From NCBI GenBank assembly GCA_022825745.1, contig JAJDWF010000114.1, positions 4,515 through 68,514 on the forward strand: a stretch of DNA of 64,000 bases, given 5' to 3'. Shown here in pieces: positions 2,541 to 61,822 of the stretch. The first letter of the stretch is position 1, and each line of letters starts with the position of its first letter. The DNA is from Dehalococcoidia bacterium (GTDB taxonomy: Bacteria > Chloroflexota > Dehalococcoidia > Lucifugimonadales > UBA3495). Under the pieces are notes generated by a model, which was not told the origin of the DNA, did not search any database, and saw only the letters and a program-made list of their open reading frames with translations. The position numbers were made by a program, and so were the translations under genes.

Positions 2541-5207
2541 TTATCTCACCTCCGCGCCCTCAGTGTCCAGTACGGTTAGGGCGTGGCCCAGTTCGCGCAG
2601 GGGTTCCTCTACCTGGTCGCGGTCGCCTACTACCAGGATGGTTAGGCGGTTGGGGGCCAGGTAGTCGGCGCCGACGCGGTGGGTGTCGGAGAGGGTGACG
2701 GCGGACAGGCGTTCCTCGAAGGTGCGGAAGTAGTCGTCGGGCAGGTTGAACTGGGCCAGCGTTACCAGTTGGCCGAGCAGTTGCGCCGGGCGCTCGAATC
2801 CGGCGGGATAGCCCAGGCGCAGCCCGTTCTGCGCGTTGTTCAGCTCGTCGTCGGTGAGGGGCCGCTCGCCGCTGATGTGAGCGAATTCTCTCAGGGTCTC
2901 GATAACCGCCTCTCGGGTGACGGCGGTTTGCACGCTGCCGCCGGCCGATAGCAGCGACGGCGCGTTGTACCAGGATATGCCCGAGTTGTAGCCGTAGGAA
3001 TATCCCTTGTCCTGCCGGAGGTTCTGGTTGAGGCGGGCGGAGAACTGCCCGCCGAAGGCGTAGTTGAGCACCGACAGCGCCATGTGGTCGGCGTGGCTGC
3101 GCTCCACCAGGGGCATGCCGGCGCGTATCACCGACTGCGCTGCGCCGGGCTTGTCGATCAGGTAGATGCGAGGGCCGTCGCCATTGCCAGACACGTCGCC
3201 GGCGTCGATATTGGCTGCCGGCTCCGAGGGCGCGGCCCAGTCCCCGAAATGTTCCTCGGCGGCGGCCAGGGCATCGTGCAGGGAAACGTCGCCGGCCACC
3301 AGCAGGCAGAGCCGGTCGGGTCGCAGCGACTCGCCGTGTCTCGCCACCAACTCGGCGCGCGGCACGGCGGACACCGTCGCCTCGTTGCCCAAGTTGGAGT
3401 GAGCGTAGGGAGATTTGGAACCGAATACGAGCGCGCCGAAGTTGGAATCGGCGAGGAATCCCGCATCGTCCTTAGCGCGGCGCAAGTCGGTGAGGCGTTC
3501 GCGGCGCACCCGCTCCAACTCATGCTCGGGGAAGTTGGCGTTGCGGGCGACGTCGGCGGCCAGGCCCAGGGCGTGTTGCCAGTGCCGGCCCAGGGTCTCG
3601 GCGGTCAACAACGTGAGTTCCTTGCGGGCCTCCGAGCCCAGCCGCGAGCCGATGTGCTCGAAGGCGGCGGAGATTTCTTGGCTGTTGCGGTTGGTCGTGC
3701 CCTCGTCCATCATAGCCGCCGTGAAGGACGATAGGCCAAGCTGGCCGGCGGGGTCTCCGGTGGCGCCGGCCCGGGCCAGAAGCGCGAAGGACACCAGCGG
3801 CCCGCCCACGGCGGACTTGTTGGCAACGATGACCTCCATGCCGTTGTCGAGGCGTCCGCGCTGCGGCGTGGGCGGGACGAACGCCGGCGTGGGGCCGCCG
3901 GCCGGCTGCACGGTGCGATCGACGGCCATAGATACGGTGGATAGCGGCCGTTCGGGATAGACCCGCATCCGCACCCGGCCGCCGCTCAATATCTGTTGGT
4001 GGACCCGCAGCACGTCCTCGCGCGTTACCTTGCGGTAGTCGTCCATCACCGTGTTGAGGCGGTCGGGGTCGCCGGTGAAGGTGTTGAAGTAGTTGAGGGC
4101 GTCGGCGCGGCCGCCGAATCCGCCGACGCGGGACAGGGTGCGGTAGTGCTGCATCTCGATGCGGTTGATGGCCCGCTCGAACTCCTCGTCGGTAGGCGGT
4201 TCCGTGGCGATGCTCTGCAGCACCTCCTCGGCGGCCTCCTCCACCTCCTCCAGGGTGTGGCCTTCGGCGGGCGTCAGCTCCATGCGGAACTGACCGGCGA
4301 TCTCGGCGGCGTAGTAGCTCACGGAGGCCGACTGAGCAATCTGCTTTTCGTACACCAGCGAGCGGTACATGCGGCTGCTGTGGCCGTCGGACAGGATGGC
4401 CCGGAGGATGTCGCCGGCGTCGTCGTTGCCCGACAGGTTGGCGGGAGCGAGCCACACGGAATACTGGCGCGGCAGCGTCACCCGGTCGGTCATCTCCAGG
4501 TCAACCCGGCCGGCCAGCGGCGAATCGGCCCGCCCGATGCGTCGCACTGCGGGGCCGGGGTCCAGGTCGGCGAAATAACGCTGCGCCAGGTCCAGCGCCT
4601 GGGCGGTGTCGATGTCGCCGGCGATGGCGAGGCTGGCGTTGGATGGCGAATAGTAACGGCGGAAAAAGTCCTTCACGTCGTCCAGGCTGGCCGCGTCCAG
4701 GTCCTCCTGTGAGCCGATGGTCATCCAGTGGTAGGGATGGGGCAGGGGGAACAGGGACTGCTGGATGTGCCACTGGGCCATGCCGTAGGGCCGGTTTTCG
4801 TAGCTCTGCCGACGTTCGTTTTTGACCACGTCGCGCTCGGTGTCAAACCCTTCCTGGTCCAGGGCGTCCAGCAGGAAACCCATGCGGTCGGCCTCCAGCC
4901 ACAGGGCCAACTCCAGGTAGTTGGACGGCACGTCCTCCCAGTAGTTGGTGCGGTCGCCGGTGGTGGAACCGTTGAGGGTCGCGCCGATCTTTTGCAGCGG
5001 CTCGAAGTGGCTGGCCTTGTGATGCCGGGTGCCGCGGAACATGATGTGCTCGAAGAGGTGGGCGAAACCGGTGCGCCCGATCTCCTCGTCCTTGGAACCG
5101 ACGTGGTACCAGACGTTGACCGCGGCCACGGGAATGGAGCGGTCCTGGTGCAGGATTACATCGAGACCGTTGGGCAGGGTGTGTTTCTCAAAAGCGATGC
5201 CAGCCAT
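2541..5207 (-). CDS. M16 (pitrilysin/insulinase) family zinc peptidase, fused two-half 888-aa form
   Basis: HxxEH zinc motif (FAHLFEHIMFRGT) near the N-terminus and NGSTTGDRTNYW. A second M16-like half follows (RNSQEISAAFEHIGSRLGSE). Confidence 0.85.
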   Translation of the reverse strand: MAGIAFEKHTLPNGLDVILHQDRSIPVAAVNVWYHVGSKDEEIGRTGFAHLFEHIMFRGTRHHKASHFEPLQKIGATLNGSTTGDRTNYWEDVPSNYLELALWLEADRMGFLLDALDQEGFDTERDVVKNERRQSYENRPYGMAQWHIQQSLFPLPHPYHWMTIGSQEDLDAASLDDVKDFFRRYYSPSNASLAIAGDIDTAQALDLAQRYFADLDPGPAVRRIGRADSPLAGRVDLEMTDRVTLPRQYSVWLAPANLSGNDDAGDILRAILSDGHSSRMYRSLVYEKQIAQSASVSYYAAEIAGQFRMELTPAEGHTLEEVEEAAEEVLQSIATEPPTDEEFERAINRIEMQHYRTLSRVGGFGGRADALNYFNTFTGDPDRLNTVMDDYRKVTREDVLRVHQQILSGGRVRMRVYPERPLSTVSMAVDRTVQPAGGPTPAFVPPTPQRGRLDNGMEVIVANKSAVGGPLVSFALLARAGATGDPAGQLGLSSFTAAMMDEGTTNRNSQEISAAFEHIGSRLGSEARKELTLLTAETLGRHWQHALGLAADVARNANFPEHELERVRRERLTDLRRAKDDAGFLADSNFGALVFGSKSPYAHSNLGNEATVSAVPRAELVARHGESLRPDRLCLLVAGDVSLHDALAAAEEHFGDWAAPSEPAANIDAGDVSGNGDGPRIYLIDKPGAAQSVIRAGMPLVERSHADHMALSVLNYAFGGQFSARLNQNLRQDKGYSYGYNSGISWYNAPSLLSAGGSVQTAVTREAVIETLREFAHISGERPLTDDELNNAQNGLRLGYPAGFERPAQLLGQLVTLAQFNLPDDYFRTFEERLSAVTLSDTHRVGADYLAPNRLTILVVGDRDQVEEPLRELGHALTVLDTEGAEVR

Positions 5208-32732: not shown

Positions 32733-33917
32733 TTACTTGGATCCGTTGCCGTTGCGGAACGCCGGGATGACTTCCTTGCCGAACTTTTCGATGGAGGCCA
32801 TGACCTTTTCGTGGGGGATGGTCTCGGTCTGCATGATGAGCATGACCTGGTCCACGCCGATGTCCTCGTACATCTGGCAGGTCTTGATGCAGGACTCGGG
32901 ATTGCCGGCGATGATGACGCCGCGGTCGGACAGGGTCTTGCCGTCCAGTTGGGCGATGGCGGCGCGGGCGGCGCCGGGGCCGGCGTCCAGCGAGAGGCCG
33001 ACGTCCTGGGCGAGTTGCTGGTGCTCCTCGTCGGACTGGCGGAGCCAGCGGCTGAAGTCGGCGGACAGGTGCTCGGGAACACCGCCCCAGGCTTCCAGCA
33101 ATTCTTCGTAGGCGCCGATGCGGCCGGCGATGTAGGGCTTGTCGGGGCCGAAGAAGGTCTTCATGGACTCGGCGGCCAGTTCCTTGGCGTAGTCGTCATC
33201 GTCGTCGCAGAAGCCGTGGACGTTGTTACCCCAGAACTCGGTGACAAATTCGCCGACGGGCTCGCAGTCCTTGAGGGCGTCGCGGTAAATCTGCACCTTT
33301 TCCTTGAGTACTTCCACGGCGTAGGAGGCCGAGGACAACACGCCGATGCCCTTCTGGGCGGCCAGGCGGAAGCTGTCTTCGGAGGTGCAGGCCAGGTAAA
33401 GGCGCGGGTGGGGCTGCTGGTAGGGCTTGGGGAGCACGCGGCGCTTGGGGACGCTCCAGTTCTCGCCCTCGTACTCGTACTCGTCGGAGGTCCAGATCTT
33501 GGGCAGCATACTGATGGACTCGTTCCACAAGTTGCGGGTCTCCCGCGGGTCGATGCCCAGGCCGGTCTGCTCGTAGGCGTTGGAGCGGCCGGTGCCGACC
33601 TCGATGCGGCCATCGGTGAGCTGGTCCAGCAGGGCGACGCGCTCGGCGACGCGGACGGGATGGTGGTAGGGCAGAATGCAGACGCCGTAGCCAATGCGGA
33701 TGTTCTTGGTGATGCGGCTCAACGCGCCGAACATGGCGTCCTGGGAGGGCGAGCCGGAGAAGCCGGTGAGGAAATGGTGTTCCACGAACCAGAGGTTGTC
33801 GAACCCCACCTGGTCGGCCAGTTCGCACTGTTCCAGTGTTTCCTTGTAAAGGGCGTTCCAATCGATCTCAGTGCCCTGGAAGGGGCGCTGGCATTCGTAA
33901 AGCAGGCCGAACTGCAT
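32733..33917 (-). CDS. LLM-class flavin-dependent oxidoreductase
   Basis: MQFGLLYECQRPF..FDNLWFVEHHFLTGFSGSPS..GRIEVGTGRS. ATG 33917 after GAGAGGAG. The upstream 100 codons of the track ORF were rejected. Confidence 0.8.
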   Translation of the reverse strand: MQFGLLYECQRPFQGTEIDWNALYKETLEQCELADQVGFDNLWFVEHHFLTGFSGSPSQDAMFGALSRITKNIRIGYGVCILPYHHPVRVAERVALLDQLTDGRIEVGTGRSNAYEQTGLGIDPRETRNLWNESISMLPKIWTSDEYEYEGENWSVPKRRVLPKPYQQPHPRLYLACTSEDSFRLAAQKGIGVLSSASYAVEVLKEKVQIYRDALKDCEPVGEFVTEFWGNNVHGFCDDDDDYAKELAAESMKTFFGPDKPYIAGRIGAYEELLEAWGGVPEHLSADFSRWLRQSDEEHQQLAQDVGLSLDAGPGAARAAIAQLDGKTLSDRGVIIAGNPESCIKTCQMYEDIGVDQVMLIMQTETIPHEKVMASIEKFGKEVIPAFRNGNGSK

Positions 33918-34170
33918 GGCTAATCTCCTCTCGTAGTGACGGATTGCATCAGGCGCGCCCGACGCAGCGGCGGTTTCCCGAAGCAAAATGGGACTCTGCC
34001 GGCCCGGGGCGCGAATTGGCGGCAGTATAGCGCAAAACGGTTTGGATTGGGAAATCCATAGCCGTATGATACAGTGGCGCAGCAACTGCCCCGCTTGCCG
34101 GCGATGGCGTAAGCGGCGATAATCCGCTGCAAGGCAAAACACGTAGGCGTCCACCAGGAGGCGTAGCGTA

Positions 34171-35709
34171 ATGAAGTATGACGTAATTATCATTGGCGCC
34201 GGGTCGGCCGGCTGCACGATGGCGGCCCGCCTGACCGAAGACCCGGACCGTTCGGTGCTGGTGCTGGAGGCCGGGCCAGACTACCCCGACTTTGAGCTGT
34301 ACCCCGACGACCTGAAGTACGGCTACGACCAGACGGCCTCGGCGGTCAACGCGCCGCACAACTGGACCTTCTGGGCGAACAACCCCGGGCAGGCCAACCC
34401 CATGCCCGTGCCTCGCGGCCGGGTCGTGGGTGGCTCGTCGGCCATCAACGGACAGGTGCTGCTGCGGGGCGTGCCCGAGGACTACGACGCCTGGGCGGCC
34501 CTGGGCAACGACGAGTGGGGCTTCACCGAGTGCCTGCCCTACTTCCGCAAGCTGGAAACCGACACCGACATCACGGATGACTTTCACGGCAACACCGGCC
34601 CGATTCCGGTGCGCCGCCACCGCCGGGAGGACTGGCTGCCGGCCCAAGTAGCGTTCTGGAACGCCTGCCGCTCCGCCGGATATCCCGACGACCCGGACAT
34701 GAACCACCCGGATTCGGGCGGCGTGGGGCCCATTCCCATGAACAACCCCAACGGCGTCCGCATGAGCACGTCGATTACCTACCTGCGGGAGGCGCGGCAT
34801 CGGCTGAACCTGACCATCCGCGCCAACGTCACTTGCCGGCGCATCGTTTTCGAGGGCAAGAAGGCCGTGGGCGTCGAGGTGGAAAGCGGCGGCGAAGTGT
34901 TCACCGTGGAGGGCGAGGACATCATCCTCAGCTCGGGGGCGATAGGATCGCCGCAACTGCTGTTGCTGTCCGGCGTTGGCCCGGCCGACCACCTGCGGGA
35001 GATGGGGATACCGGTGGTTCACGAACTGCCGGGCGTGGGCCAAAACCTACGCGACCATCCCAACATCCGCGTGCCGGTGAAGGTCAAGGACGACTTCCCG
35101 CTGGACCCGTCGGCGCCGCGTACCCAGGTTTGCCTGCGCTACACCGCGACGGACAGCCACCTGCGCAACGACATCCAGATCATGCAGTCGTCGTTCTCGT
35201 CGCCAATCGCCGGCGACCCGCTGGAAGCCGAGGGCATCCGGTTCACCTGCATCCTGGAGCTGGCGGTGGGTTCGGGCCACCTGCAACTGGCCAGCACCGA
35301 CCCGCACGAGCAGGTAAACCTGAACTACAACTACTTCCAGGAGGAGTTCGACCTGTCGCGGATGCGCGAGGCCGTCCGGCTGTGCGTGAACCTGCTGGAC
35401 AGCGAGCATTACCGCGACGTGGCCGATGAGTTGCTGGACCCGCTGCCGGCGGACCTGGAAAGCGACGAGGCGCTGAACGACTGGCTCAAGCGCACCGTGA
35501 GCACGTCGCAGCACATCTCGGGCACCTGCAAGATTGGCACGTCCGACGACCCGATGGCCGTGGTTGACCAGCACTGCCGGGTGTATGGGCTGGAGAACCT
35601 GCACGTGGCCGACGCGTCGGTGATGCCCGACTGCATACGGGCCAACACCAACTGCACGACGATCATGATCGCCGAGCGCAAATCGGACTGGTTCCGCGCC
35701 GGCGAATAG
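34171..35709 (+). CDS. GMC family oxidoreductase (choline dehydrogenase-like)
   Basis: MKYDVIIIGAGSAGCTMAARLTED, GGSSAINGQV, and a C-terminal HISGTCKIG..VVD..RVYGLENLHVADASVMP signature. Confidence 0.9.
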   Translation: MKYDVIIIGAGSAGCTMAARLTEDPDRSVLVLEAGPDYPDFELYPDDLKYGYDQTASAVNAPHNWTFWANNPGQANPMPVPRGRVVGGSSAINGQVLLRGVPEDYDAWAALGNDEWGFTECLPYFRKLETDTDITDDFHGNTGPIPVRRHRREDWLPAQVAFWNACRSAGYPDDPDMNHPDSGGVGPIPMNNPNGVRMSTSITYLREARHRLNLTIRANVTCRRIVFEGKKAVGVEVESGGEVFTVEGEDIILSSGAIGSPQLLLLSGVGPADHLREMGIPVVHELPGVGQNLRDHPNIRVPVKVKDDFPLDPSAPRTQVCLRYTATDSHLRNDIQIMQSSFSSPIAGDPLEAEGIRFTCILELAVGSGHLQLASTDPHEQVNLNYNYFQEEFDLSRMREAVRLCVNLLDSEHYRDVADELLDPLPADLESDEALNDWLKRTVSTSQHISGTCKIGTSDDPMAVVDQHCRVYGLENLHVADASVMPDCIRANTNCTTIMIAERKSDWFRAGE

Positions 35710-35737
35710 AGCAACAAACCAAATAAGGGGCGAAAAA

Positions 35738-36517
35738 ATGACCACCGCAGTACGAGAAGTCCACGTTTACACCAACCCTGGTTGATTCAGCTGCCGGACG
35801 CTGGAGGAATTCCTGGCGTCCAACGGTGTTCAGTATGAACACCACGATCTGCTGACCGACGACGCGGCCCGCGAGGACCTGAAGTCCCGGGGCGTGCTGT
35901 CCGCGCCCGTCACCATCATCGACGGCACCGAGGTCATCATCGGGTACTACCCGAAGAAGCTGATCCCGGCGCTGGGCCTGGAGGACGCGCCCATCGACCT
36001 GTCGGGCAAGACGGCCTGGCTGGGCGACAAGTACCGCCTGATCCTGGACGCCGCCGTTCGCGCGACGCTGGAATTGTCGGAAGAGCAACTGGCCCAGCCG
36101 GTGCAGTGGCGTCCCGAGATGCTGCGGGACACGCTGGTGCACATCGTGTCGTTCCCGGAACTGGCTTATACCAGCCGCACACGGGGCTCCATGAGCTCCG
36201 ACGACATGCGGGCGTGCCGCGAGAGCCTGGCGCACCTGGTGAAGCCGCAGGACATCGCCGACTACGCCAACGGCGTCGCCGACGGAATCGTCGCATTCCT
36301 GAACAGCGGCGACACCGAGGGATTCGACCGGGTGGTGCCGGCGCACTACGGCGGCGAGGTGACGGTGCTGGAACTGCTCAACATCATCCTGAGCCACAGC
36401 ACGCACCACCTGAAGCAGGTCTATTGGTTCATGGACACCAACCTGAACCAGCCGGCGCAGACTCCCGCTACTGAGGAAGACATGGAGGGCATCTTCACGC
36501 CGGCCCAGCTGATATAG
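35738..36517 (+). CDS. Candidate selenoprotein: glutaredoxin/NrdH-fold domain with U-x-x-C (TGA at 35783-35785) fused to a DinB-like domain
   Basis: ATG 35738 is in the same frame as track ORF 35894..36517, and the only stop between them is TGA 35783. The read-through gives MTTAVREVHVYTNPG[U]FSCRTLEEFLASNGVQYEHHDLLTDDAAREDLKSRGVLSAPVTIIDGTEVIIGYYPKKL. The C-terminal part contains His residues in a DinB-like arrangement (LVHIV, ILSHSTHHLKQ). Confidence 0.6.
35796..35821 (+). promoter_or_regulatory. Candidate bacterial SECIS hairpin
   Basis: ggacgc (35796-35801) pairs with gcgtcc (35816-35821). An inner agg/cct stem carries an aatt loop, with the apical loop about 23 nt after the UGA. Confidence 0.4.
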
Positions 36518-36546: not shown

Positions 36547-37518
36547 ATGGCCGAACCACTGATTGCGTTGGACGAGGTACCCGAGACCCGGGTAATCATA
36601 GCCGGCTGGCGTCGTCAGTGGTCGGACGGCGGCAACATATCCAGCGGGATGCCGCGCTGGCTGATCGACAAGCTGTCGGCGCGCCGCATCGGACGCATGA
36701 CGGGCGAAATTTCACGGATGTGTTTTCCGTTCCAGGTGGCGGGCACCCACGACCTGTACCGGCCCCGGGCCGCGTTCAACGACGGGTTGCCGAGTAGCCC
36801 GATGCAATGGGATAACGGATTCTGGGACGCCGGCAACGGGCTGGTGATATTCCTGGGCATCGAGCCGTGGTATCGCATCGACCTGTACGGCCAGGCGTTC
36901 TTTGAAGCGGTGGCCGCCCTGGGCAATCCCAAGATCGCAGCGGTGGAAGGCTACAACGGGCCGGCCCCGCCGGAGCAGGAACGGCGGATTTCGTGCGTGT
37001 ACAGCAAGGCGTCAATGGCCGATGAGCTGCGACAGCACGGGATGCTGTTTTCCAGCTACGGGTCCCAGCAGCGGCAAGGGCCGACGGTGGGGATGGCCAT
37101 GGTGAGCCTGGCCCACTACCAGCATCCCGACGTGGAAATGGTGCGGGTGGGCGCGATGGCCCCGATGTTCCCGTTCAGCGGCGGCAGCGGCGGCCAACTG
37201 GGCATCACCACCGACCACCGTGCGTTTTACGACATCATGCGACGGTTGCGCGCGTTGTACTCGCTGGACATCGACCTTTCGGACCTGCGGCCCCGGTACG
37301 AGGAGGAAGCGCAACGGCTCCAGGAATCGCTGGACCGGGTGGCGCAAAGGAACGACGAAGCCCGGCGTTACATCGACCGGGTGCGGAGCGAGCACAATTT
37401 CCAGCCCTTTGAGGAACCCATCGAGTTGCCCCCGAGCATTGAGGGCACGCTGGCCGACATCCTGGGGCAGTTCGACCTGCCGGGCGATGACGACGACGGC
37501 CTGGCCGGGGCGCGTTGA
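36547..37518 (+). CDS. PAC2-family (proteasome assembly chaperone-like) protein, tentative
   Basis: The N-terminus TRVIIAGWRRQWSDGGNISSGMPRWLIDKL resembles the PAC2 'vigfpG.gdaG.va' start. The rest is not firmly recognised. Confidence 0.4.
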   Translation: MAEPLIALDEVPETRVIIAGWRRQWSDGGNISSGMPRWLIDKLSARRIGRMTGEISRMCFPFQVAGTHDLYRPRAAFNDGLPSSPMQWDNGFWDAGNGLVIFLGIEPWYRIDLYGQAFFEAVAALGNPKIAAVEGYNGPAPPEQERRISCVYSKASMADELRQHGMLFSSYGSQQRQGPTVGMAMVSLAHYQHPDVEMVRVGAMAPMFPFSGGSGGQLGITTDHRAFYDIMRRLRALYSLDIDLSDLRPRYEEEAQRLQESLDRVAQRNDEARRYIDRVRSEHNFQPFEEPIELPPSIEGTLADILGQFDLPGDDDDGLAGAR

Positions 37519-54183: not shown

Positions 54184-54409
54184 TCCCATGCGCGCCTTTA
54201 AGACGCGCTGTTGCTTGACAAAAAATCCGGCCCGGCGATAAACTCGCTGGAAATGCTGCAAACGCGACCCTCTACCTTTACCTGCGCCTGTCCCGACACA
54301 TAGGGACGGGCCAATTGCAACTGCAAAGCGCCTGTGCCCACAAGAACCGTGCCACGGATTGGGGTGCGGGTTTTCTTATGCGATGGCGCCCGACACGGAG
54401 GAACCCCAA

Positions 54410-55261
54410 ATGGTGCAACCCCTTCGGTTGACCCCGGACCAGGTCAAACGCTACAGCCGCCACATCATCATGCAGGATGTGGGCAGCGCCGGCCAGCGCA
54501 AGATGATGGAGTCCAGCGCGCTGATTATCGGGGCCGGCGGCCTGGGTTCTCCCTCGGCGGTGTACCTGGCCCTGGCCGGCGTCGGCAAGCTGGGCATCGT
54601 TGACTTCGACGTGGTCGAACTGTCCAACCTACAACGGCAGATTTTGCACCACACGCCCGACGTGGGCCGTCCCAAAGTCCAGTCGGCCCTGGACAACATC
54701 AAGTCCTACAACCCGGAAGTTGAGGTGGTGCTGCACGAAGCGTGGCTCACCTCCGAGAACGCCTTTGACATCATCGGCCAGTACGACATCGTGATCAACG
54801 GCGCCGACAATTTCGCCACCCGGTACCTGGTCAACGACGCCTGCTACCTGCTCAACAAGCCGCTCATCGACGGCAGCATCCTGATTTTCGACGGCCAGGC
54901 CACCGTGTTCCTGCCGGGCCAGGGCTGCTACCGTTGCCTGTTCCCGGCGCCGCCGCCTCCCGGCATGGTGCCCAACTGTGCTGAGGCCGGAGTGCTGGGC
55001 GCGCTGACGGGCCTGGTGGGTTCCATCCAGGCCACCGAGGCGCTGAAGCACATCCTGGGCATCGGGGAGAGCCTGTCCTCACGCCTGCTGGTCATCGACG
55101 CGCTGAGCATGCAGTTCCGGGAAGTCCGTTTGCGGCGCAATCCCGACTGCCCGCTGTGCGGCGACAACCCGACGGTGAAGGAACTCATCGACTACGAAGT
55201 GTTCTGCGGAGTGGCCGAGGAAGCGCCCGAGCCGCTGGCCGTCGCGGCCGGAGCCGTGTAG
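54410..55261 (+). CDS. moeB: ThiF/MoeB-family sulfur-carrier adenylyltransferase (no rhodanese domain)
   Basis: RYSRHIIMQDVGSAGQRKM..ALIIGAGGLGSP..VDFDVVELSNLQRQ; Zn motifs CYRC and CPLCG. Confidence 0.8.
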   Translation: MVQPLRLTPDQVKRYSRHIIMQDVGSAGQRKMMESSALIIGAGGLGSPSAVYLALAGVGKLGIVDFDVVELSNLQRQILHHTPDVGRPKVQSALDNIKSYNPEVEVVLHEAWLTSENAFDIIGQYDIVINGADNFATRYLVNDACYLLNKPLIDGSILIFDGQATVFLPGQGCYRCLFPAPPPPGMVPNCAEAGVLGALTGLVGSIQATEALKHILGIGESLSSRLLVIDALSMQFREVRLRRNPDCPLCGDNPTVKELIDYEVFCGVAEEAPEPLAVAAGAV

Positions 55262-55285: not shown

Positions 55286-56236
55286 ATGCTCACCAAGGGC
55301 ACCTACAAGGGTCTGATTTCCACCATCGGCAACACGCCGCTGGTGGAACTGGAAAACCTGAGCCCCAACCCCAACGTCCGCCTGTACGCCAAGCTGGAGG
55401 GGCAGAACCCCACCGGCAGCGTCAAGGACCGCATCGCCCTCAAGATGATCGAACGGGCGGAAGCGGACGGCGAAATTTCGCCCAACCGCACCATCCTGGA
55501 ACCCACGTCGGGCAACACCGGCATCTCCCTGGCCATGATCGGCCGGCTGAAGGGTTACAAGGTGTCCGTGGTGATGCCCGAAAACGTCTCCGTGGAGCGT
55601 ACGCAGCTGCTGGAAGCCTACGGCGCGGAGATCATCTACTCCGACGGCACGCTGGGCACCAACGGCAGCGTGGTAGTCGCCCAGGAAATCGTCGAGAAGA
55701 ACCCCCACGACTACCTGATGCTGTACCAGTACGGCAACGAGGGCAACCCGGAAGCCCACTACGAGGGGACGGGCCAGGAAATCGTGGAAGCCCTGCCCGA
55801 CGTGGACGTGTTCGTGGCCGGCCTAGGCACCGGCGGCACCCTGATGGGCAACGCCCGCCGCCTCAAGGAGCACCGCAGCGACATCAAGATCATCGCGGTC
55901 GCGCCGGAACCGGACGACTTCATATCCGGCCTGCGCCGCCTTGAGGACGGATTCATACCGCCCATCCTGGACATCAACCTGCTGGACAACCGCCTGCTGG
56001 TGAACAGCTTCGATTCCTTCTACATGACGAAAGACCTGATGGACAAGGAAGGTATCTTTGCCGGCATCTCCTCCGGTTCGGTCATCGCCGGCGCGTTGAA
56101 GCACGCCGAGCGAATGGAGAGCGGCAACGTGGTCTGCCTGCTGGCGGACGGCGGCTGGAAGTACCTGAGCAGCCAGTTGTGGACCCGGGACTACGAAACC
56201 CTGGCCCAGGAGGCGCAGGGCAAAATCTGGTGGTAG
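55286..56236 (+). CDS. cysM: PLP-dependent cysteine synthase (CysM/CysK family)
   Basis: IGNTPLVEL..KLEGQNPTGSVKDRIAL..EPTSGNTGISLA. Confidence 0.85.
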   Translation: MLTKGTYKGLISTIGNTPLVELENLSPNPNVRLYAKLEGQNPTGSVKDRIALKMIERAEADGEISPNRTILEPTSGNTGISLAMIGRLKGYKVSVVMPENVSVERTQLLEAYGAEIIYSDGTLGTNGSVVVAQEIVEKNPHDYLMLYQYGNEGNPEAHYEGTGQEIVEALPDVDVFVAGLGTGGTLMGNARRLKEHRSDIKIIAVAPEPDDFISGLRRLEDGFIPPILDINLLDNRLLVNSFDSFYMTKDLMDKEGIFAGISSGSVIAGALKHAERMESGNVVCLLADGGWKYLSSQLWTRDYETLAQEAQGKIWW

Positions 56237-56452: not shown

Positions 56453-58240
56453 ATGAAAAGCGATTTCATGATGGCGTTAAATCAGTTATCTGCCGAACGC
56501 GGGCTACGCAAGGAACTGGTCCTGAACAAGGTGGAGGTGGCGCTGGCCACCGCGTTCCGCCGCGATAGCGTTGCCGGGGCCAAGAACCTGTCGGTGAAAC
56601 TCAACCCGAACACGGGCGACATCAGCATTTTCCCCCTGCGGACGGTGGTGGACGAAGTGGACGACCCCGAGACGCAGATCCTGCTGTCCGAGGCTTTGAG
56701 ACTCGTTCCCGACGCCCAGGTGGACACCGAGATTCCCGAGTCCGAGGAAGTGTCCTACGACACCAGCCGCATCTCAGCTCAAACGGCGCGCCAGGTGCTG
56801 ATGCAGGGGTTGCGTGAGGCGGAAAGGGAAAAGACCTTTGAGGAATACTCCGGATACCAGGGCGAGATAATCAGCGGCAGCGTCGAGAGCATTGAAAAAG
56901 GGCCGACGGTGTTCATCAACCTGAACCCCCACCAGGCCCAGAACCAGAATCGGGCGCGGGGCATCATGCGTCCCGACAACCAGGTCGGCAACGAACGGTA
57001 CCGCAAGGGCCAGAACCTCAAGGTGCTGCTGGTGGAAGTCCAGCAGACCACGCGGGGGCCCGAGGTTGTGGTCAGCCGTTCGCACCGCGACCTTTTGCGT
57101 CGCCTGATGGAGGCGGAAGTACCGGAGATCAGCAACGGCACGGTGGAAATTCGCGCCATTGCCCGGGATCCCGGGATCCGCAGCAAGGTGGCGGTGGCAT
57201 CCCACCAGGACGGCGTTGACCCGGTGGGCTCCTGCATCGGGCTGCGGGGCAACCGTATCCAGAGCATCGTCAACGAGTTGCAGGGCGAAAAGATCGACGT
57301 CATAGAGTGGGACTCGAACCCGCAGGTTATGATCTCGCGCGCCCTCAGCCCGGCGGACGTGGGCGCGGTGGAGCTGGACGCCGATGAACGCACCGCGTAC
57401 GTGGTGGTTCCCGAAACCCAGATGTCGCTGGCTATCGGCCGGGACGGGCAGAACGCCAAGCTGGCGGCTCGCCTCACCGGGTGGCGGCTGGACATCAAGA
57501 ATGTTGAGCAGTGGGAGGCCCTGCGGGCGGCCCGCGCCGCCGAAGCCGCACGCATAGCAGCCGAACAGGCTGCCGCGTTGGCCGAAGCCGAGGCGCAAGC
57601 TGAGGCCGAAGCCCTGGCTGCCGCAGCGGTTGCGGAAGAGGCCGAGGTGGAAACCCTCAGCGTCGCCGAAGCCGCCGAGGCTGCGATTGCGGAAACCGGC
57701 CTGTCCGTGGAAACGCCCGAAGCCGTCGAACTCCACGAGGAGGTGCCGGAGGTCGAGGCCACGGCTGCCCTGGAAGAAGCTCCGGCGGTGATCGAAGAAA
57801 GCGTGCCCGAAGTGGCTGAGCCGGTTGCGGAAGAAGCTGAGGCCGCCCCGGATTACGATGAGGAAGCCCTCTTCGCCGCGCTGCTGGCGGAGGAAGCGGC
57901 GGCCGCCGCTCCGGTGGAAACGCCGAGCCAGGAGGAGCCGGAGGCAGAACCGGAACCCGTCGGCCTGGGCGTTGAAGCTCTTGAAAACCTCACCCTGGAC
58001 GACGTAGTTGAAGACTATGACGAAGAAGAAGATGAACTTGAAGACGAAGAGCTTGACGAGGAAATGAGCGAACTGCTCGCGGGCCTGCCTAACCTTGCTC
58101 CCGACGCCGGGAAGATCCGGTTCGCGGAAGACATCGTCGGCGACTTCAGGGGCGGTTCCGGACGACGGCGCCGCGGCGGCGGCAACCGGCGCGGCGGCAA
58201 CGTGCCGGGCGCGCGCGGCCCGGGCCCCCGCCGACGCTAA
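56453..58240 (+). CDS. nusA: Transcription termination/antitermination factor NusA with long Ala/Glu-rich and Arg/Gly-rich C-terminal extension
   Basis: N-terminal and S1/KH core ([14 protein letters not shown].., [53 protein letters not shown]). About 245 aa of low complexity follow, ending [17 protein letters not shown]. Confidence 0.9.
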
Positions 58241-58267
58241 AGCCAGCGCGCATCCGCATCACGACTC

Positions 58268-58609
58268 TTGACTATCGCGATTCTCGACAGACGAAAGGTA
58301 ATAGCGATTCCCAAAAAGCGACACATACCCGAACGCAGTTGCATCGCCTGTGGCCGGAAAGGGCCGAAAGGCCAGTTGGTGCGGGTCGTCCGCACGCCGG
58401 ACGGCCCTGTGCTGCCCGACCCAACCGGGCGAGCCAACGGGCGCGGAGCATATTTGTGCAACCGCGTGGGGTGTTGGGAACGCGGGTTGGCGAAACGCGC
58501 CTTGGAGCGCAGCCTTCGCGCCAGAGTGACGGATTCAGACATCGAAACGCTACAGAATTACTACATTGAGACCATCGCGTCCGGCGGCGCCAGGAGGTGT
58601 TATCCATGA
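58268..58609 (+). CDS. ylxR: YlxR/DUF448 family RNA-binding protein
   Basis: ERSCIACGRKGPKGQLVRVV..GRGAYLC. TTG start is uncertain. The stop overlaps the infB ATG (ATGA). Confidence 0.7.
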   Translation: MTIAILDRRKVIAIPKKRHIPERSCIACGRKGPKGQLVRVVRTPDGPVLPDPTGRANGRGAYLCNRVGCWERGLAKRALERSLRARVTDSDIETLQNYYIETIASGGARRCYP

Positions 58610-60417
58610 CGACAACCCAGCAACGCACCGCAGGCGCCAGGCGGCCCAGGCGCGGCGAACCCCGCCGCAATACCCCTCGTGTGCTGGTGCTGCCCGAGAC
58701 CATGACCGTGAAAGAGCTGGCGGAATTGCTGGACCAATCGCCGGTGGACGTGATCAAGCAACTGATGCGACACGGCATCATGGTATCGGTGAACCAGGTA
58801 ATCGACCACCAGGTCGCCACCGTCGCCGCCGCCGCATACAGCGTCAGGACCCGCCTGGCCGAAGTTGCCGAGGACACCTCGGCAATCAACGCCGGCGCTG
58901 CGGAAGACAACGAAGACCTGCTGGAATCACGCCCCCCGGTGATCACCATACTCGGGCACGTTGACCACGGGAAGACCAGCCTGCTGGACTACATCCGGTC
59001 AACGGCGGTGGTGGAAAAAGAAGCCGGCGGGATCACTCAACACATCGGCGCCTACCAGGTCTCACAGGACGGACAGCCGATTACTTTCCTGGATACCCCC
59101 GGGCACGCCGCCTTCACGGCGATCCGGTCCCGCGGCGCGCGAGTAACCGACATTGCCGTGCTGGTCGTCGCCGCCGACGATGGAATCATGCCCCAGACGG
59201 ACGAGGCCATCGACCACGCCCGGGCGGCTGAGGTACCCATCGTCGTCGCAATCAACAAGATGGACTTGCCCTCCGCCCAGCCGGACGTCGTCAAGCGGCA
59301 GCTCAGCGAGCGCAACCTGCTGGTGGAAGAATGGGGTGGCGACATCATCGCCGTTCCAGTATCGGCCCAAACCGGCGACGGCGTTGACGATTTGATCGAG
59401 AACCTGCTGGTGCTCTCCGAAATCCTGGAACTGAGGGCGAACCCCGAGCGGGACGCTGCCGGCGTGATTATCGAAGCCACCCTTGACCGCCGCCGGGGGC
59501 CGTCCGCAACCGTGCTGGTCCAGACCGGAACCCTGCGGGTGGGCGACCACATCGTGGCCGGCGGCGCGTGGGGAAGAGTGCGGGCCATTGCCAACGAACG
59601 CGGTGAAACCATGGACGCGATCACTCCCGGTTCGCCGGGCGTGGTCACGGGCCTCAACGCAACGCCGGAAGCCGGCGATATTTTGAGGGTGGTATCCAAC
59701 GAGCGCACCGCCCGCCAGACCGCGACGCGGCACGGCCAGCGCGGCAGCACGGGCAATCTGGACACCGTCCTTACCCTCGACAACATCGTGAAGCAGATCG
59801 ACGCCGGCGATGTCAAGGAACTGGTGCTGGTCCTCAAAGCCGATGTCCAGGGCAGCGTTGAAGCGGCGGTGAATTCCATTGAGAAACTGTCCGACGGAGA
59901 CGTGAAAGCCCGCGTCATCCACGCCGGCTCCGGCCTGGTCAGCGACTCCGACGTGCAGTTAGCCTCAGCGTCGGGCGGCATCATCCTGGCGTTCAACGTG
60001 GGGTTTGAAATCGGAGCGGAGCGCACCGCTGAACGCTTGGGCGTTGAAGTGAGGAACTACCAGATCATCTACCGCCTGCTGGAAGACGTGGAACAGGCCC
60101 TCCACGGCATGCTGGAACCGGAATACGAGGAAGTGGTCGTCGGACGGGCCGAAGTGCGCGAAATCTTCGCGGGGCGTCGCGGCGTCCAGATCGCGGGTTG
60201 CCGCGTGCTGGATGGCCGGATCACCCGCCAGGGCTCGGTCAGGGTGATGCGGGAAGACGATGTCGTGTACGAAACCGAGATGTCGAGCCTGCGGCACTTC
60301 CGGGACGAAGTCAACCAGGCGACGGCCGGCACCGACTGCGGTATCGTGCTCGAATCCTTCAACGAATATGAGGAAGGCGACGTAATCCTCGCCTACCGCA
60401 TGGAGCGGGTCAACTGA
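58606..60417 (+). CDS. infB: Translation initiation factor IF-2
   Basis: RPPVITILGHVDHGKTSLLD, DTPGH, NKMD. ATG 58606 sits 8 nt after GGAGG. Confidence 0.9.
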   Translation: MTTTQQRTAGARRPRRGEPRRNTPRVLVLPETMTVKELAELLDQSPVDVIKQLMRHGIMVSVNQVIDHQVATVAAAAYSVRTRLAEVAEDTSAINAGAAEDNEDLLESRPPVITILGHVDHGKTSLLDYIRSTAVVEKEAGGITQHIGAYQVSQDGQPITFLDTPGHAAFTAIRSRGARVTDIAVLVVAADDGIMPQTDEAIDHARAAEVPIVVAINKMDLPSAQPDVVKRQLSERNLLVEEWGGDIIAVPVSAQTGDGVDDLIENLLVLSEILELRANPERDAAGVIIEATLDRRRGPSATVLVQTGTLRVGDHIVAGGAWGRVRAIANERGETMDAITPGSPGVVTGLNATPEAGDILRVVSNERTARQTATRHGQRGSTGNLDTVLTLDNIVKQIDAGDVKELVLVLKADVQGSVEAAVNSIEKLSDGDVKARVIHAGSGLVSDSDVQLASASGGIILAFNVGFEIGAERTAERLGVEVRNYQIIYRLLEDVEQALHGMLEPEYEEVVVGRAEVREIFAGRRGVQIAGCRVLDGRITRQGSVRVMREDDVVYETEMSSLRHFRDEVNQATAGTDCGIVLESFNEYEEGDVILAYRMERVN

Positions 60418-60433
60418 ACCGTTCGAGGTGAAC

Positions 60434-60829
60434 ATGGCCGACCGCCGCCGCGTTGAACGGGTGAACGGGCTGCTGCGCCAGGAAATTTCCAACCTGGTCG
60501 CCTCGCAGGTCAACGACCCGCGTCTCAACGGGATCATCACGATTACCCAGGTCAGGACCGCGCCGGACCTGCGCAATGCGCGGGTGTACATCAGCGTCAT
60601 GGGGCGCGAGTCGGTCCGCCAGGAAGCGTTGGCCGGAATCCAGTCCTCAGCCTCCTACTTGCGGCGCGAACTGCGCAACCGGGTATCGCTCCGCTACATA
60701 CCCTTCCTGCGTTTCGTGCTGGACGACGCGATGATCGAGGCTGACCGCCTGATGCGGATTATCGACGACCTGCCCGCATCGGATGCGGCCGGCGACGGTG
60801 GCAATGCTCCTTCGTCCGGTCGGGGTTGA
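60434..60829 (+). CDS. rbfA: Ribosome-binding factor A
   Basis: RRRVERVNGLLRQEISNLV..DPRL..ITITQVRTAPDLRNARVYISV. Confidence 0.85.
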   Translation: MADRRRVERVNGLLRQEISNLVASQVNDPRLNGIITITQVRTAPDLRNARVYISVMGRESVRQEALAGIQSSASYLRRELRNRVSLRYIPFLRFVLDDAMIEADRLMRIIDDLPASDAAGDGGNAPSSGRG

Positions 60830-60832
60830 GCC

Positions 60833-61822
60833 GTGGCATCCGAGCGACAGGTTGAGCCACCGGCCCACGGGTTCTTGAACCTGTACAAGCCGGCGGGAAT
60901 CACTTCCATGGCGGCCCTGCGCCGGGTGAAGCGCGCCACGGGGCAACGCAAGAAGGTAGGACACGCCGGAACCATTGACCCGCTGGCCGAAGGCGTGCTG
61001 CCGATCTGCTTCGGCCAGGCCACACGCCTGATGGAGGATGTGGTATCCGGCCGCAAGCGATACCGCATGACCATGCGCCTGGGCGCCACCAGCACGACCT
61101 ACGACGCCGAGGGCGACATTACGGAAAGCGCGCACCCCCTGGAATTGACGCGCCGCGAAATCGAGGCCGCGTTGGTCAACTTCGTGGGACGCATCGAGCA
61201 GGTGCCGCCCATGTACAGCGCGATCAAAGTGGATGGCCGCCGCCTGTACGAACTGGCGCGGGCGGGAAAAGAAGTGGCGCGGGCGCCGCGTCCGGTTCAG
61301 GTGTACGAGATCCACATTGACGAAATCAGCCTGCCTTACTTGCGCCTGACCGTTGACTGCGGCAAGGGCACCTATCTGCGCTCCATCGCCCATGACCTGG
61401 GCCAGGCCCTGGGCTGTGGAGGGTATGTCATCGAGCTTTGCCGATTGAGTTGCGGTCGGTTCAAAGCCGAACACGGGATTACGCTGGAAGGGCTGGAGGA
61501 TGCTGCCGAGGGAGGAGACTGGCGCGTTCACCTTCAGCCGGTGGACTGGGCGCTGCGAGATTATCCCGCGTTGCGAGTGACCAGCGATCAGGCGACGGCC
61601 ATCAAGCACGGGCAAGCCATCCAGCCCGGAGGCGACGCAGCGGCAGGCCCCGAAACGCCGGGGATGTGGCGCGCTTACGATCCCGACGGCGTTTTCCTGG
61701 CGCTGTTGCAATTCCAGGGTGAGACTGGCTGCTGGCAACCCCGGAGAGTGTTTCAGAGTTCCGACGTGTCTCCCTACGCTCCACCGCCGTCGAACGCGCC
61801 GCCCCGGGCAGCAGGGGCCTGA
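60833..61822 (+). CDS. truB: tRNA pseudouridine(55) synthase TruB
   Basis: GFLNLYKPAGITSMAALRRVKR..KVGHAGTIDPLAEGVLPICFG..PPMYSAIKVDGRRLYELAR. Confidence 0.9.
   Translation: MASERQVEPPAHGFLNLYKPAGITSMAALRRVKRATGQRKKVGHAGTIDPLAEGVLPICFGQATRLMEDVVSGRKRYRMTMRLGATSTTYDAEGDITESAHPLELTRREIEAALVNFVGRIEQVPPMYSAIKVDGRRLYELARAGKEVARAPRPVQVYEIHIDEISLPYLRLTVDCGKGTYLRSIAHDLGQALGCGGYVIELCRLSCGRFKAEHGITLEGLEDAAEGGDWRVHLQPVDWALRDYPALRVTSDQATAIKHGQAIQPGGDAAAGPETPGMWRAYDPDGVFLALLQFQGETGCWQPRRVFQSSDVSPYAPPPSNAPPRAAGA

Follow-up and report, generated by a model that had tools for sequence, protein, structure and literature searches.

We analysed a stretch of 64,000 nucleotides from a Dehalococcoidia bacterium (contig JAJDWF010000114.1, positions 4,515 to 68,514 of the forward strand; hereafter, the window) and describe a gene at 35738..36517 (+) that joins a glutaredoxin (Grx)-like domain to a DinB domain and contains an in-frame TGA. 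Comparison with its homologues argues strongly that this Grx-DinB gene is intact and encodes one selenoprotein of 259 residues, in which UGA 35783 is very probably decoded and does not terminate translation. Translation, Pfam matches and homologues agree on the extent of the coding sequence.

The frame opens with the ATG at 35738–35740, which follows a Shine–Dalgarno-like AAGGGG (35725..35730, +) with a spacer of 7 nt, and reaches the TAG stop codon at 36515–36517. The TGA at 35783..35785 (+) is the sole interruption and separates the upstream codons from the open reading frame (ORF) 35894..36517, to which they are joined in frame. All of these elements lie where the original prediction, made from the letters of the window, had placed them. 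Read-through gives MTTAVREVHVYTNPG-U-FSCRTLEEFLASNGVQYEHH..., where U16 is the proposed selenocysteine (Sec) and the translation continues FSCRTLEEFL. In the resulting active-site motif, U16-F-S-C19, the predicted attacking residue is U16 and the resolving residue is Cys19, which is encoded by TGC at 35792..35794 (+) and is invariant as an amino acid in all homologues.

Conservation of the TGA codon and of the surrounding frame

We scanned one genome per GTDB species, which gave at least 188 matching stretches, and examined the best 80 loci, from 80 species. The U16 codon is TGA in all 80 of these species genomes, at protein identities of 64–95%, and homologues of 60–95% identity have the same frame and the same TGA. 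Among 88 homologous sequences, 87 have TGA at this codon and likewise keep the frame on both sides and the downstream hairpin described below. The 80 species are nearly all Dehalococcoidia/Chloroflexota (one of them named SAR202), and two are Candidatus Entotheonella. The closest relative of the window is L082 (IRC4_bin_11), a sponge-derived Chloroflexota metagenome-assembled genome (MAG) with 92.8% nucleotide identity over 7 kb, and the same TGA is found in independent assemblies of the window organism itself (L001–L004).

Among 5.8 billion proteins searched, 983 relatives were found, and an exhaustive profile comparison with 1.84 billion cluster representatives added distant ones. Sixteen distant full-length homologues (248–276 amino acids) carry a CxxC motif (W-Q-P-G-C-S-S-C), the first Cys of which aligns with the TGA, so that PG-C-SS-C of the Cys forms is matched to PG-U-FS-C of the Sec forms. 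The TGA had been predicted to sit exactly at the N-terminal redox Cys of a Grx fold, and the alignment bears this out; the column in question holds TGA in the species genomes and Cys in the distant full-length homologues. Divergent subfamilies that we checked in DNA have the TGA in three of three cases, namely L088 (RVG-U-FTC), L089/L090 (QPG-U-TAC) and L091 (RPG-U-FSC), and public models of intermediate subfamilies are again truncated just past the motif. Since Cys aligns with the TGA and the TGA recurs in several subfamilies, we regard these proteins as a classical Sec/Cys pair family, several subfamilies of which use Sec. A short fragment, P0174, has Ser at the U16 position together with an internal deletion.

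The two Entotheonella genomes, L043 (Ca. Entotheonella sp. DD2) and L056 (Ca. Entotheonella palauensis), carry the Sec-form gene with TGA and hairpin. These members of the Tectomicrobia are sponge symbionts, as are many of the Chloroflexota carriers, and their copies may reflect horizontal transfer within the sponge microbiome.

The sequence V-H-V-Y-T-N-P-G immediately before the TGA is fixed at the level of amino acids while its codons vary: those of V-8, V-6 and Y-5 change synonymously, and Val -8 uses all four Val codons. Conservation of the protein with synonymous change extends over the 10–15 codons 5' of the TGA, and the position equivalent to 35894 is not where the homologues start; conserved upstream codons were one of the checks proposed with the original prediction. 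The first in-frame ATG after the TGA lies 78–120 codons downstream or is absent. Internal starts are not conserved, the most common candidate being present in 31 of 87 sequences.

Nearly all of the 983 relatives are 202–237 residues long and begin at varied points just past the TGA position. Such scattered starts are the signature of gene callers that restart past a stop, and truncation at arbitrary near-cognate starts is systematic in the public models (P0001–P0120). A few full-length public models carry W or R at the U16 position. W is found in P0075 (locus L005), P0116 (locus L007) and P0138, which are ENA and Logan gene calls; the DNA of both L005 and L007 has TGA. These W calls apparently reflect the use of genetic code 4 or 25 for the contigs, which gave proteins that are full-length but wrong. 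As to public names, P0076 is an NCBI 'DinB family protein' of 237 amino acids and P0107 is a 'hypothetical protein' or, in UniRef, a 'DinB-like domain-containing protein'; P0107 is filed under the sponge host Geodia barretti and not under a bacterial symbiont.

Hairpins after the UGA and the proposed decoding of Sec

The UGA is followed by a hairpin (hairpin 1; 35796..35821, +) that resembles a selenocysteine insertion sequence (SECIS) element. In the minimum free energy (MFE) structure, it has a lower stem of seven pairs (GGACGCU/GGCGUCC, with one U-G pair), a bulge of 1 nt (U), an upper stem of three pairs (GGA/UCC) and a G-rich loop, GGAAU, at 35806–35810. A hairpin had been proposed at these positions with an outer stem of six pairs, an internal loop and an inner stem of three pairs; its place and its three-pair inner stem are as proposed, whereas the outer stem has seven pairs and a single bulged nucleotide takes the place of the internal loop. 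The apical loop begins 20 nt past the UGA, and the hairpin region folds at −15.4 kcal/mol.

The published model of bacterial SECIS (bSECIS) elements has a loop of 3–9 nt with G in the first two loop positions, a spacing of 16–37 nt, an MFE of −7.5 kcal/mol or lower and an upper stem of 4–16 bp (PMC13188914). The loop of hairpin 1 starts within this spacing, as had been anticipated, and 48 of 63 unique sequences show every feature of the model in their MFE fold. The 61–68 nt after the UGA form two hairpins with a folding energy of −25 to −26 kcal/mol; relative to dinucleotide shuffles, z is −2.9 to −3.5. Over 66 distinct sequences, 88% of the hairpin 1 cells are paired, compared to less than 50% in controls slid by 1–3 columns, and pair 19–34 switches among C-G (19), U-A (19) and G-U (8). 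Divergent subfamilies have hairpins at the same distance from the UGA with different stem sequences, which provides independent support for the element. RNAalifold, run on a 77-sequence alignment, gave a weak and different consensus (−4.4 kcal/mol) that ignores hairpin 1; support for hairpin 1 is based on explicit pair counts with controls and on per-sequence folds rather than on RNAalifold.

Hairpin 2 (GGUGUUCA-GUA-UGAACACC; 35825..35843, +) is better conserved in its pairing than hairpin 1, with 97% of cells paired across homologues. The synonymous sites of codons +13 to +17 (AAC GGT GTT CAG TAT) are nearly frozen, and the divergent subfamily L091 shows a compensatory change from A-U to G-C. 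The loop of hairpin 2 lies approximately 48 nt from the UGA and thus beyond the published bSECIS range. Normalised synonymous-codon entropy is 0.45–0.48 in codons −9 to +20, compared to 0.66–0.77 in the rest of the gene, and this low value near the UGA indicates a constraint at the RNA level that overlaps the coding sequence.

We also scanned the loci for in-frame UxxC and CxxU motifs that would mark other selenoproteins. The scan for further in-frame-TGA genes in the 64-kb window gave none. In four related genomes, a selenoprotein gene of glycine/sarcosine/betaine reductase lies 8–9 kb from the Grx-DinB gene. L025, L026 and L030 have grdA (glycine reductase selenoprotein A), whose TGA is at the canonical C-F-V-U site (Pfam GRDA, E = 1.6e-56), and L062 has grdB (selenoprotein B), whose TGA is also at its canonical site (LVAT-U-GTC; GRDB, E = 3.3e-119). 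The TGA codons are at 18363 (−) in L025 and at 18705 in L026, 16811 in L030 and 18541 in L062 (+). GrdA and GrdB are experimentally established selenoprotein families, and the canonical Sec-TGA codons indicate that at least part of the lineage has a working Sec system. This lends indirect support to Sec decoding in the window organism, and the gene sequences suggest that SAR202-type bacteria may perform selenium-dependent glycine or betaine reduction. The four carriers are marine or sponge Dehalococcoidia MAGs.

Several points weigh against the selenoprotein reading or the function proposed for it. Covariation in hairpin 1 is modest, because most of its pairs are invariant under coding constraint. 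Fifteen of the 63 unique sequences depart from the strict bSECIS model in their MFE fold, mostly by forming hairpin 1 in a shifted upper-stem register, and the window hairpin itself has ten pairs, only three of them above the 1-nt bulge. Rfam returned no SECIS or other relevant family, either at gathering thresholds or at E ≤ 10, which says little because bacterial SECIS elements are poorly modelled. ARAGORN detected ordinary tRNAs only, and no tRNA-Sec, in the window and all 87 loci (∼ 1.6 Mb of related flanks), and tblastn with approximate E. coli SelD, SelA and SelB queries found no selA, selB or selD in the same sequences. One homologue, L006, has CGA (Arg) at 4089–4091 and keeps the downstream hairpin; its contig is a 2× long-read assembly in which several genes are split by apparent frameshifts, which makes the CGA either erroneous or of very recent origin. 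Finally, the functional mechanism set out below is drawn by analogy only. A SelB-like tblastn match at 58939–59619 of the window proved to be infB (IF2 GTPase domain), which lies between nusA and truB.

If UGA 35783 were a true stop, the gene would be split or decayed, and translation from an internal start would yield a DinB protein on its own, the form that public annotations give it (207–237 amino acids). The gene callers of ENA, NCBI and JGI all yield truncated DinB models, and a GTG-initiated ORF is available at 35894–36517. However, the starts chosen by the callers vary from genome to genome and none is conserved, and the shortened public models have their first residue within the glutaredoxin fold. 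The synonymous pattern of the codons upstream of the TGA is that of a translated protein, and a decaying fragment would not hold one precise TGA in 80 species; we consider a true stop scarcely credible. The idea that the TGA stems from faulty sequencing or assembly, or that it arose by a recent nonsense mutation in this one organism and marks a pseudogene, is effectively refuted. A single-base error can turn TGC or TGT into TGA, and L006 does differ at this codon, but the identical TGA is present in the L001–L004 assemblies and in 80 further species, sequenced in many projects and with many technologies, and L006 comes from the low-coverage contig with visibly split genes. The conservation of the TGA likewise excludes a frameshift at 35783, which the original prediction had named together with a sequencing error as a way in which it could fall. 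The refuting conditions named there came out on the side of the prediction wherever the available DNA allowed a check.

It is very unlikely that the UGA is read through or recoded without Sec, be it by near-cognate insertion of Trp, Cys or Arg or by reassignment according to code 4 or 25. The W translations of P0075, P0116 and P0138 speak for such recoding, as does the fact that Sec machinery was not directly observed in the window and its related flanks. Against it, TGA ends many well-supported window genes, among them high-GC3 (GC content at third codon positions) ORFs such as PAC2 (37516–37518) and infB; this genome uses TGA as a regular stop codon, and its code is therefore not reassigned. 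The site is also the catalytic Cys of CxxC in the Cys forms, where Trp or Arg would kill the redox site, a conserved bSECIS-type hairpin follows the UGA, and four genomes that carry the gene also carry grdA or grdB with a canonical Sec-TGA. Under the preferred reading, in which the UGA is decoded as Sec, the comparative evidence shows that the ribosome starts at ATG 35738, inserts an amino acid at UGA 35783 and continues to TAG 36517. Following established bacterial Sec biology, the inserted residue would be Sec, supplied by SelB and Sec-tRNA(Sec) that are recruited by the hairpin at 35796–35821.

Domain architecture, putative metal triad and proposed mechanism

Pfam was run on the read-through product with Cys substituted for U. 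Glutaredoxin (PF00462) matches residues 8–65 with E = 1.4e-9 and 38.4 bits (cutoff 22.9), DinB_2 (PF12867) matches residues 112–228 with E = 1.7e-7 and 32.2 bits (cutoff 24.8), and DinB (PF05163) matches with E = 2.7e-5 and 24.6 bits (cutoff 23). Taking Pfam, an AlphaFold2 (AF2) model and Foldseek together, we assign a Grx-like (NrdH/YruB-type) domain of thioredoxin fold to residues ∼ 8–78 (35759..35971, +). Pfam, Foldseek and a domain profile place a DinB/YfiT (S-transferase-like, STL) four-helix-bundle domain at residues ∼ 91–234 (36008..36439, +). The C-terminal half had been described as DinB-like from the sequence, and Pfam, the fold and the His triad discussed below all agree with that description.

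The AF2 model was computed for the full-length homologue P0075 and has a predicted local distance difference test score (pLDDT) of 81.8 and a predicted template modelling score (pTM) of 0.76. Its N-terminal domain is a β1-α1-β2-α2-β3-β4-α3 thioredoxin fold (strands 3–7, 29–32, 53–56 and 60–63; helices 13–23, 37–45 and 67–73), in which the Sec position falls at the N-terminal end of helix 1. The C-terminal domain is a four-helix bundle of YfiT topology (helices 86–105, 123–143, 164–182 and 204–228). In a Foldseek search of the PDB, the N-terminal domain matches cGrx1 (7c10) with a root-mean-square deviation (rmsd) of 1.0 Å, a template modelling (TM) score of 0.92 and 40% identity; BC3987 and NrdH are also matched, and the model superposes on 7c10, 3zij and 1h75. 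The C-terminal domain matches YfiT/BstA (1rxq), YjoA/BstD (3dka), 2p1a and DR0053 (6iz2) with TM scores of 0.70–0.81, a range that also holds for BCE_2162. No PDB structure among the Foldseek matches spans both halves. A single-sequence PDB search with the DinB domain alone gave no match; the DinB domain profile matches 3dka, 3gor and 3di5 at E ∼ 1e-6.

The dithiol glutaredoxin cGrx1 of Clostridium (Alkaliphilus) oremlandii (7c10/7c12) is natively a selenoprotein, its active site being U(C)PxC, and it reduces MsrA (PMC7642778). That the closest structural match of the Grx domain is itself a native selenoprotein was counted for the Sec reading. Like cGrx1, the window protein has a thioredoxin fold with Sec as the first residue of UxxC at the N-terminus of helix α1. 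The two differ in motif and in context: cGrx1 stands free, with ∼ 84 residues and U-P-x-C, whereas the window protein has U-F-S-C and a covalently attached DinB domain of 180 residues. The best NCBIfam matches are YruB (TIGR02196) and NrdH (TIGR02194), at 54.6 bits against a cutoff of 88.55 and 44.1 bits against 85.75, respectively; the window protein is related to both families and is a member of neither. All NCBIfam matches are below threshold, and release 20 has no dedicated model for the fusion.

The UXX-star and HUGP/GUXX-star selenoproteins share with the window protein a Grx-like fold with Sec in the active site. In the UXX-star families, however, translation ends two residues after Sec (U-x-x-stop), whereas the window protein has UxxC followed by approximately 240 residues. 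Membership of NF041212, NF041211 and NF045501 was rejected at 33.2, 23.7 and 19.8 bits against cutoffs of 66, 100 and 325, respectively. An Spx/ArsC-like family was also considered for the window protein and rejected. Glutathione S-transferases (GSTs) and E. coli Grx2-type proteins have an analogous layout, in which an N-terminal thioredoxin/Grx-like domain precedes an all-helical substrate domain; GST_N_3 is a weak Pfam match (E = 0.024), and GSTs are found low in the Foldseek list. Membership of the GSTs was rejected, as the C-terminal domains are not homologous (rmsd 11–16 Å, TM ∼ 0.3), GSTs have no metal triad and the alignment runs through the thioredoxin-fold domain only.

The DinB domain resembles the STL metalloenzymes BstA (YfiT), BstD (YjoA), mycothiol transferase (MST) and DR0053, all of which are four-helix bundles with an H...HxxxH triad. 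STL enzymes are metal dependent and use a thiol nucleophile (PMC5815605, PMC10950700). In the B. subtilis bacillithiol transferases, whose activity depends on metal, three equivalent His residues are the sole fully conserved residues, and the metal triad of BstA is formed by H67, H160 and H164 (PMC5815605). The equivalent residues of the window protein would be His135 (36140..36142, +), as the first ligand of a putative metal triad, and His220 and His224 (HxxxH; 36395..36409, +), as the second and third ligands; in 3dka, 3gor and 3di5, the positions aligned with these three are the metal ligands of the H...HxxxH pattern. In 18 diverse DinB domains of Sec and Cys forms, only these three His and a Gly, a Gln and a Pro are invariant, and H135, H220 and H224 are the only invariant histidines over Sec and Cys forms at ∼ 20% identity. 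We take this invariance to argue for a conserved metal site under selection. The known STL members differ from the window protein in that they are stand-alone proteins that use a diffusible low-molecular-weight thiol, and none of them has been linked to Sec. Identity to the STL structures is only 12–17%, and S-transferase activity would be assigned here by analogy. The Cys-form Grx-DinB fusions (such as P0175, P0191 and P0212, which are uncharacterised) have the same two-domain architecture and His triad, with CxxC aligned to UxxC; they differ in having Cys for Sec and are ∼ 20–25% identical in the DinB domain.

By analogy with these enzymes, a selenium-dependent thiol transferase or reductase activity is a reasonable inference. 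In a tentative mechanism, the selenolate of Sec16 would act as nucleophile in a redox or transfer reaction whose substrate is bound at the DinB metal site. Sec16 would substitute in cis for the bacillithiol or mycothiol of other DinB/STL transferases. Cys19 would then resolve the adduct to give a selenenylsulfide, which a thioredoxin-reductase-type system would reduce again, as for NrdH/YruB-type redoxins. Recycling of this type is suggested because the Grx domain is NrdH/YruB-type rather than glutathione-binding. This particular sequence of steps, with Sec16 acting at the metal site, Cys19 resolving and thioredoxin-reductase-type recycling, is possible, though we would not yet favour it.

A selenoprotein with a different division of labour is also conceivable, in which the DinB domain is a non-catalytic docking or regulatory module and the protein reduces disulfides in general, much as free NrdH or cGrx1 do. 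Taken by itself, the Grx domain looks like one of the stand-alone redoxins whose substrates are partner proteins, as MsrA is for cGrx1, and most DinB proteins are without a known substrate (PMC10950700). On the other hand, the exclusive invariance of H135, H220 and H224 across Sec and Cys forms speaks against a docking module, and the Grx-DinB fusion is stably kept across at least 434 representative clusters. We regard a non-catalytic DinB domain as unlikely.

Genomic neighbourhood and significance of the family

The Grx-DinB gene lies between two genes on the same strand. Upstream, a gene for a GMC-family FAD oxidoreductase (34171..35709, +; Pfam) ends 28 nt before the Grx-DinB start codon, and the two genes are probably co-transcribed. 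A GMC oxidoreductase homologue is found within 4 kb in 42 of the 80 species loci. Downstream, a PAC2-family gene (36547..37518, +; Pfam PF09754) starts 29 nt after the Grx-DinB stop. A PAC2 homologue directly adjoins the Grx-DinB gene in ∼ 45 of 80 species loci (L005, L008, L009, L034 and L054 among them), downstream on the same strand in 21, upstream and divergent in 19 and upstream on the same strand in 5. The PAC2 neighbour diverges at a rate similar to that of Grx-DinB (median identity ∼ 61%). Because the adjacency persists through rearrangement, a functional link is suggested, and the PAC2-family neighbour is a candidate that is probably a functional partner of the Grx-DinB protein.

Taken as a whole, the features above would make the protein the first DinB/YfiT selenoenzyme, in which a tethered, metal-activated Sec replaces a diffusible thiol, Cys19 and thioredoxin reductase provide recycling, PAC2 acts as a partner and hairpin 2 forms part of an extended, non-canonical SECIS element. 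This complete combination is rather doubtful.

A thioredoxin-fold UxxC selenoprotein that is read through a bSECIS element is of an already known kind. Novelty here lies in the Grx-DinB architecture, in the connection with the DinB/STL superfamily and in the taxa concerned. Our literature searches found no paper on a link between DinB and Sec or on a Grx-DinB fusion, and DinB does not figure in a 2026 inventory of 119 prokaryotic selenoprotein families. Domain surveys, such as the Global Ocean Sampling (GOS) study, may have counted fragments of the family under generic 'Grx' or 'Grx-like UxxC' rows.

The family is widespread among Dehalococcoidia of the SAR202 type and among sponge symbionts: GTDB species genomes contain at least 188 matching stretches, and the proteins fall into ∼ 980 clusters at 90% identity. 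Across the public databases, it is mis-annotated as a truncated 'DinB family protein' that lacks the catalytic residue and half of the redox domain. Reading the TGA as Sec would restore the real protein and add a selenoprotein family that is missing from both NCBIfam release 20 and the 2026 inventory. Both the deep ocean and sponges harbour SAR202-type Dehalococcoidia in abundance, and on this reading these bacteria would be shown to rely on selenium. The poorly understood DinB/STL superfamily would also be linked to a built-in redox partner, which gives a handle on DinB-domain chemistry in organisms whose low-molecular-weight thiol is unidentified.

Genes for luciferase-like flavin monooxygenases (PF00296) are found near the Grx-DinB gene, at 32733–33923 (−) in the window and on contigs L001 and L006. 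An expansion of this family is typical of SAR202, and its presence fits the taxonomic assignment. Further downstream, the window contains a nusA–infB–truB cluster at 56453–61822 (+). Just before this cluster, a MoeB/ThiF-like adenylyltransferase ORF (54359–55261, +) adjoins a CysK/CysM-like cysteine synthase ORF (55286–56236, +), both judged by eye from their translations, and the two resemble a pair from a sulfur-carrier-type cysteine or thiocarboxylate pathway.

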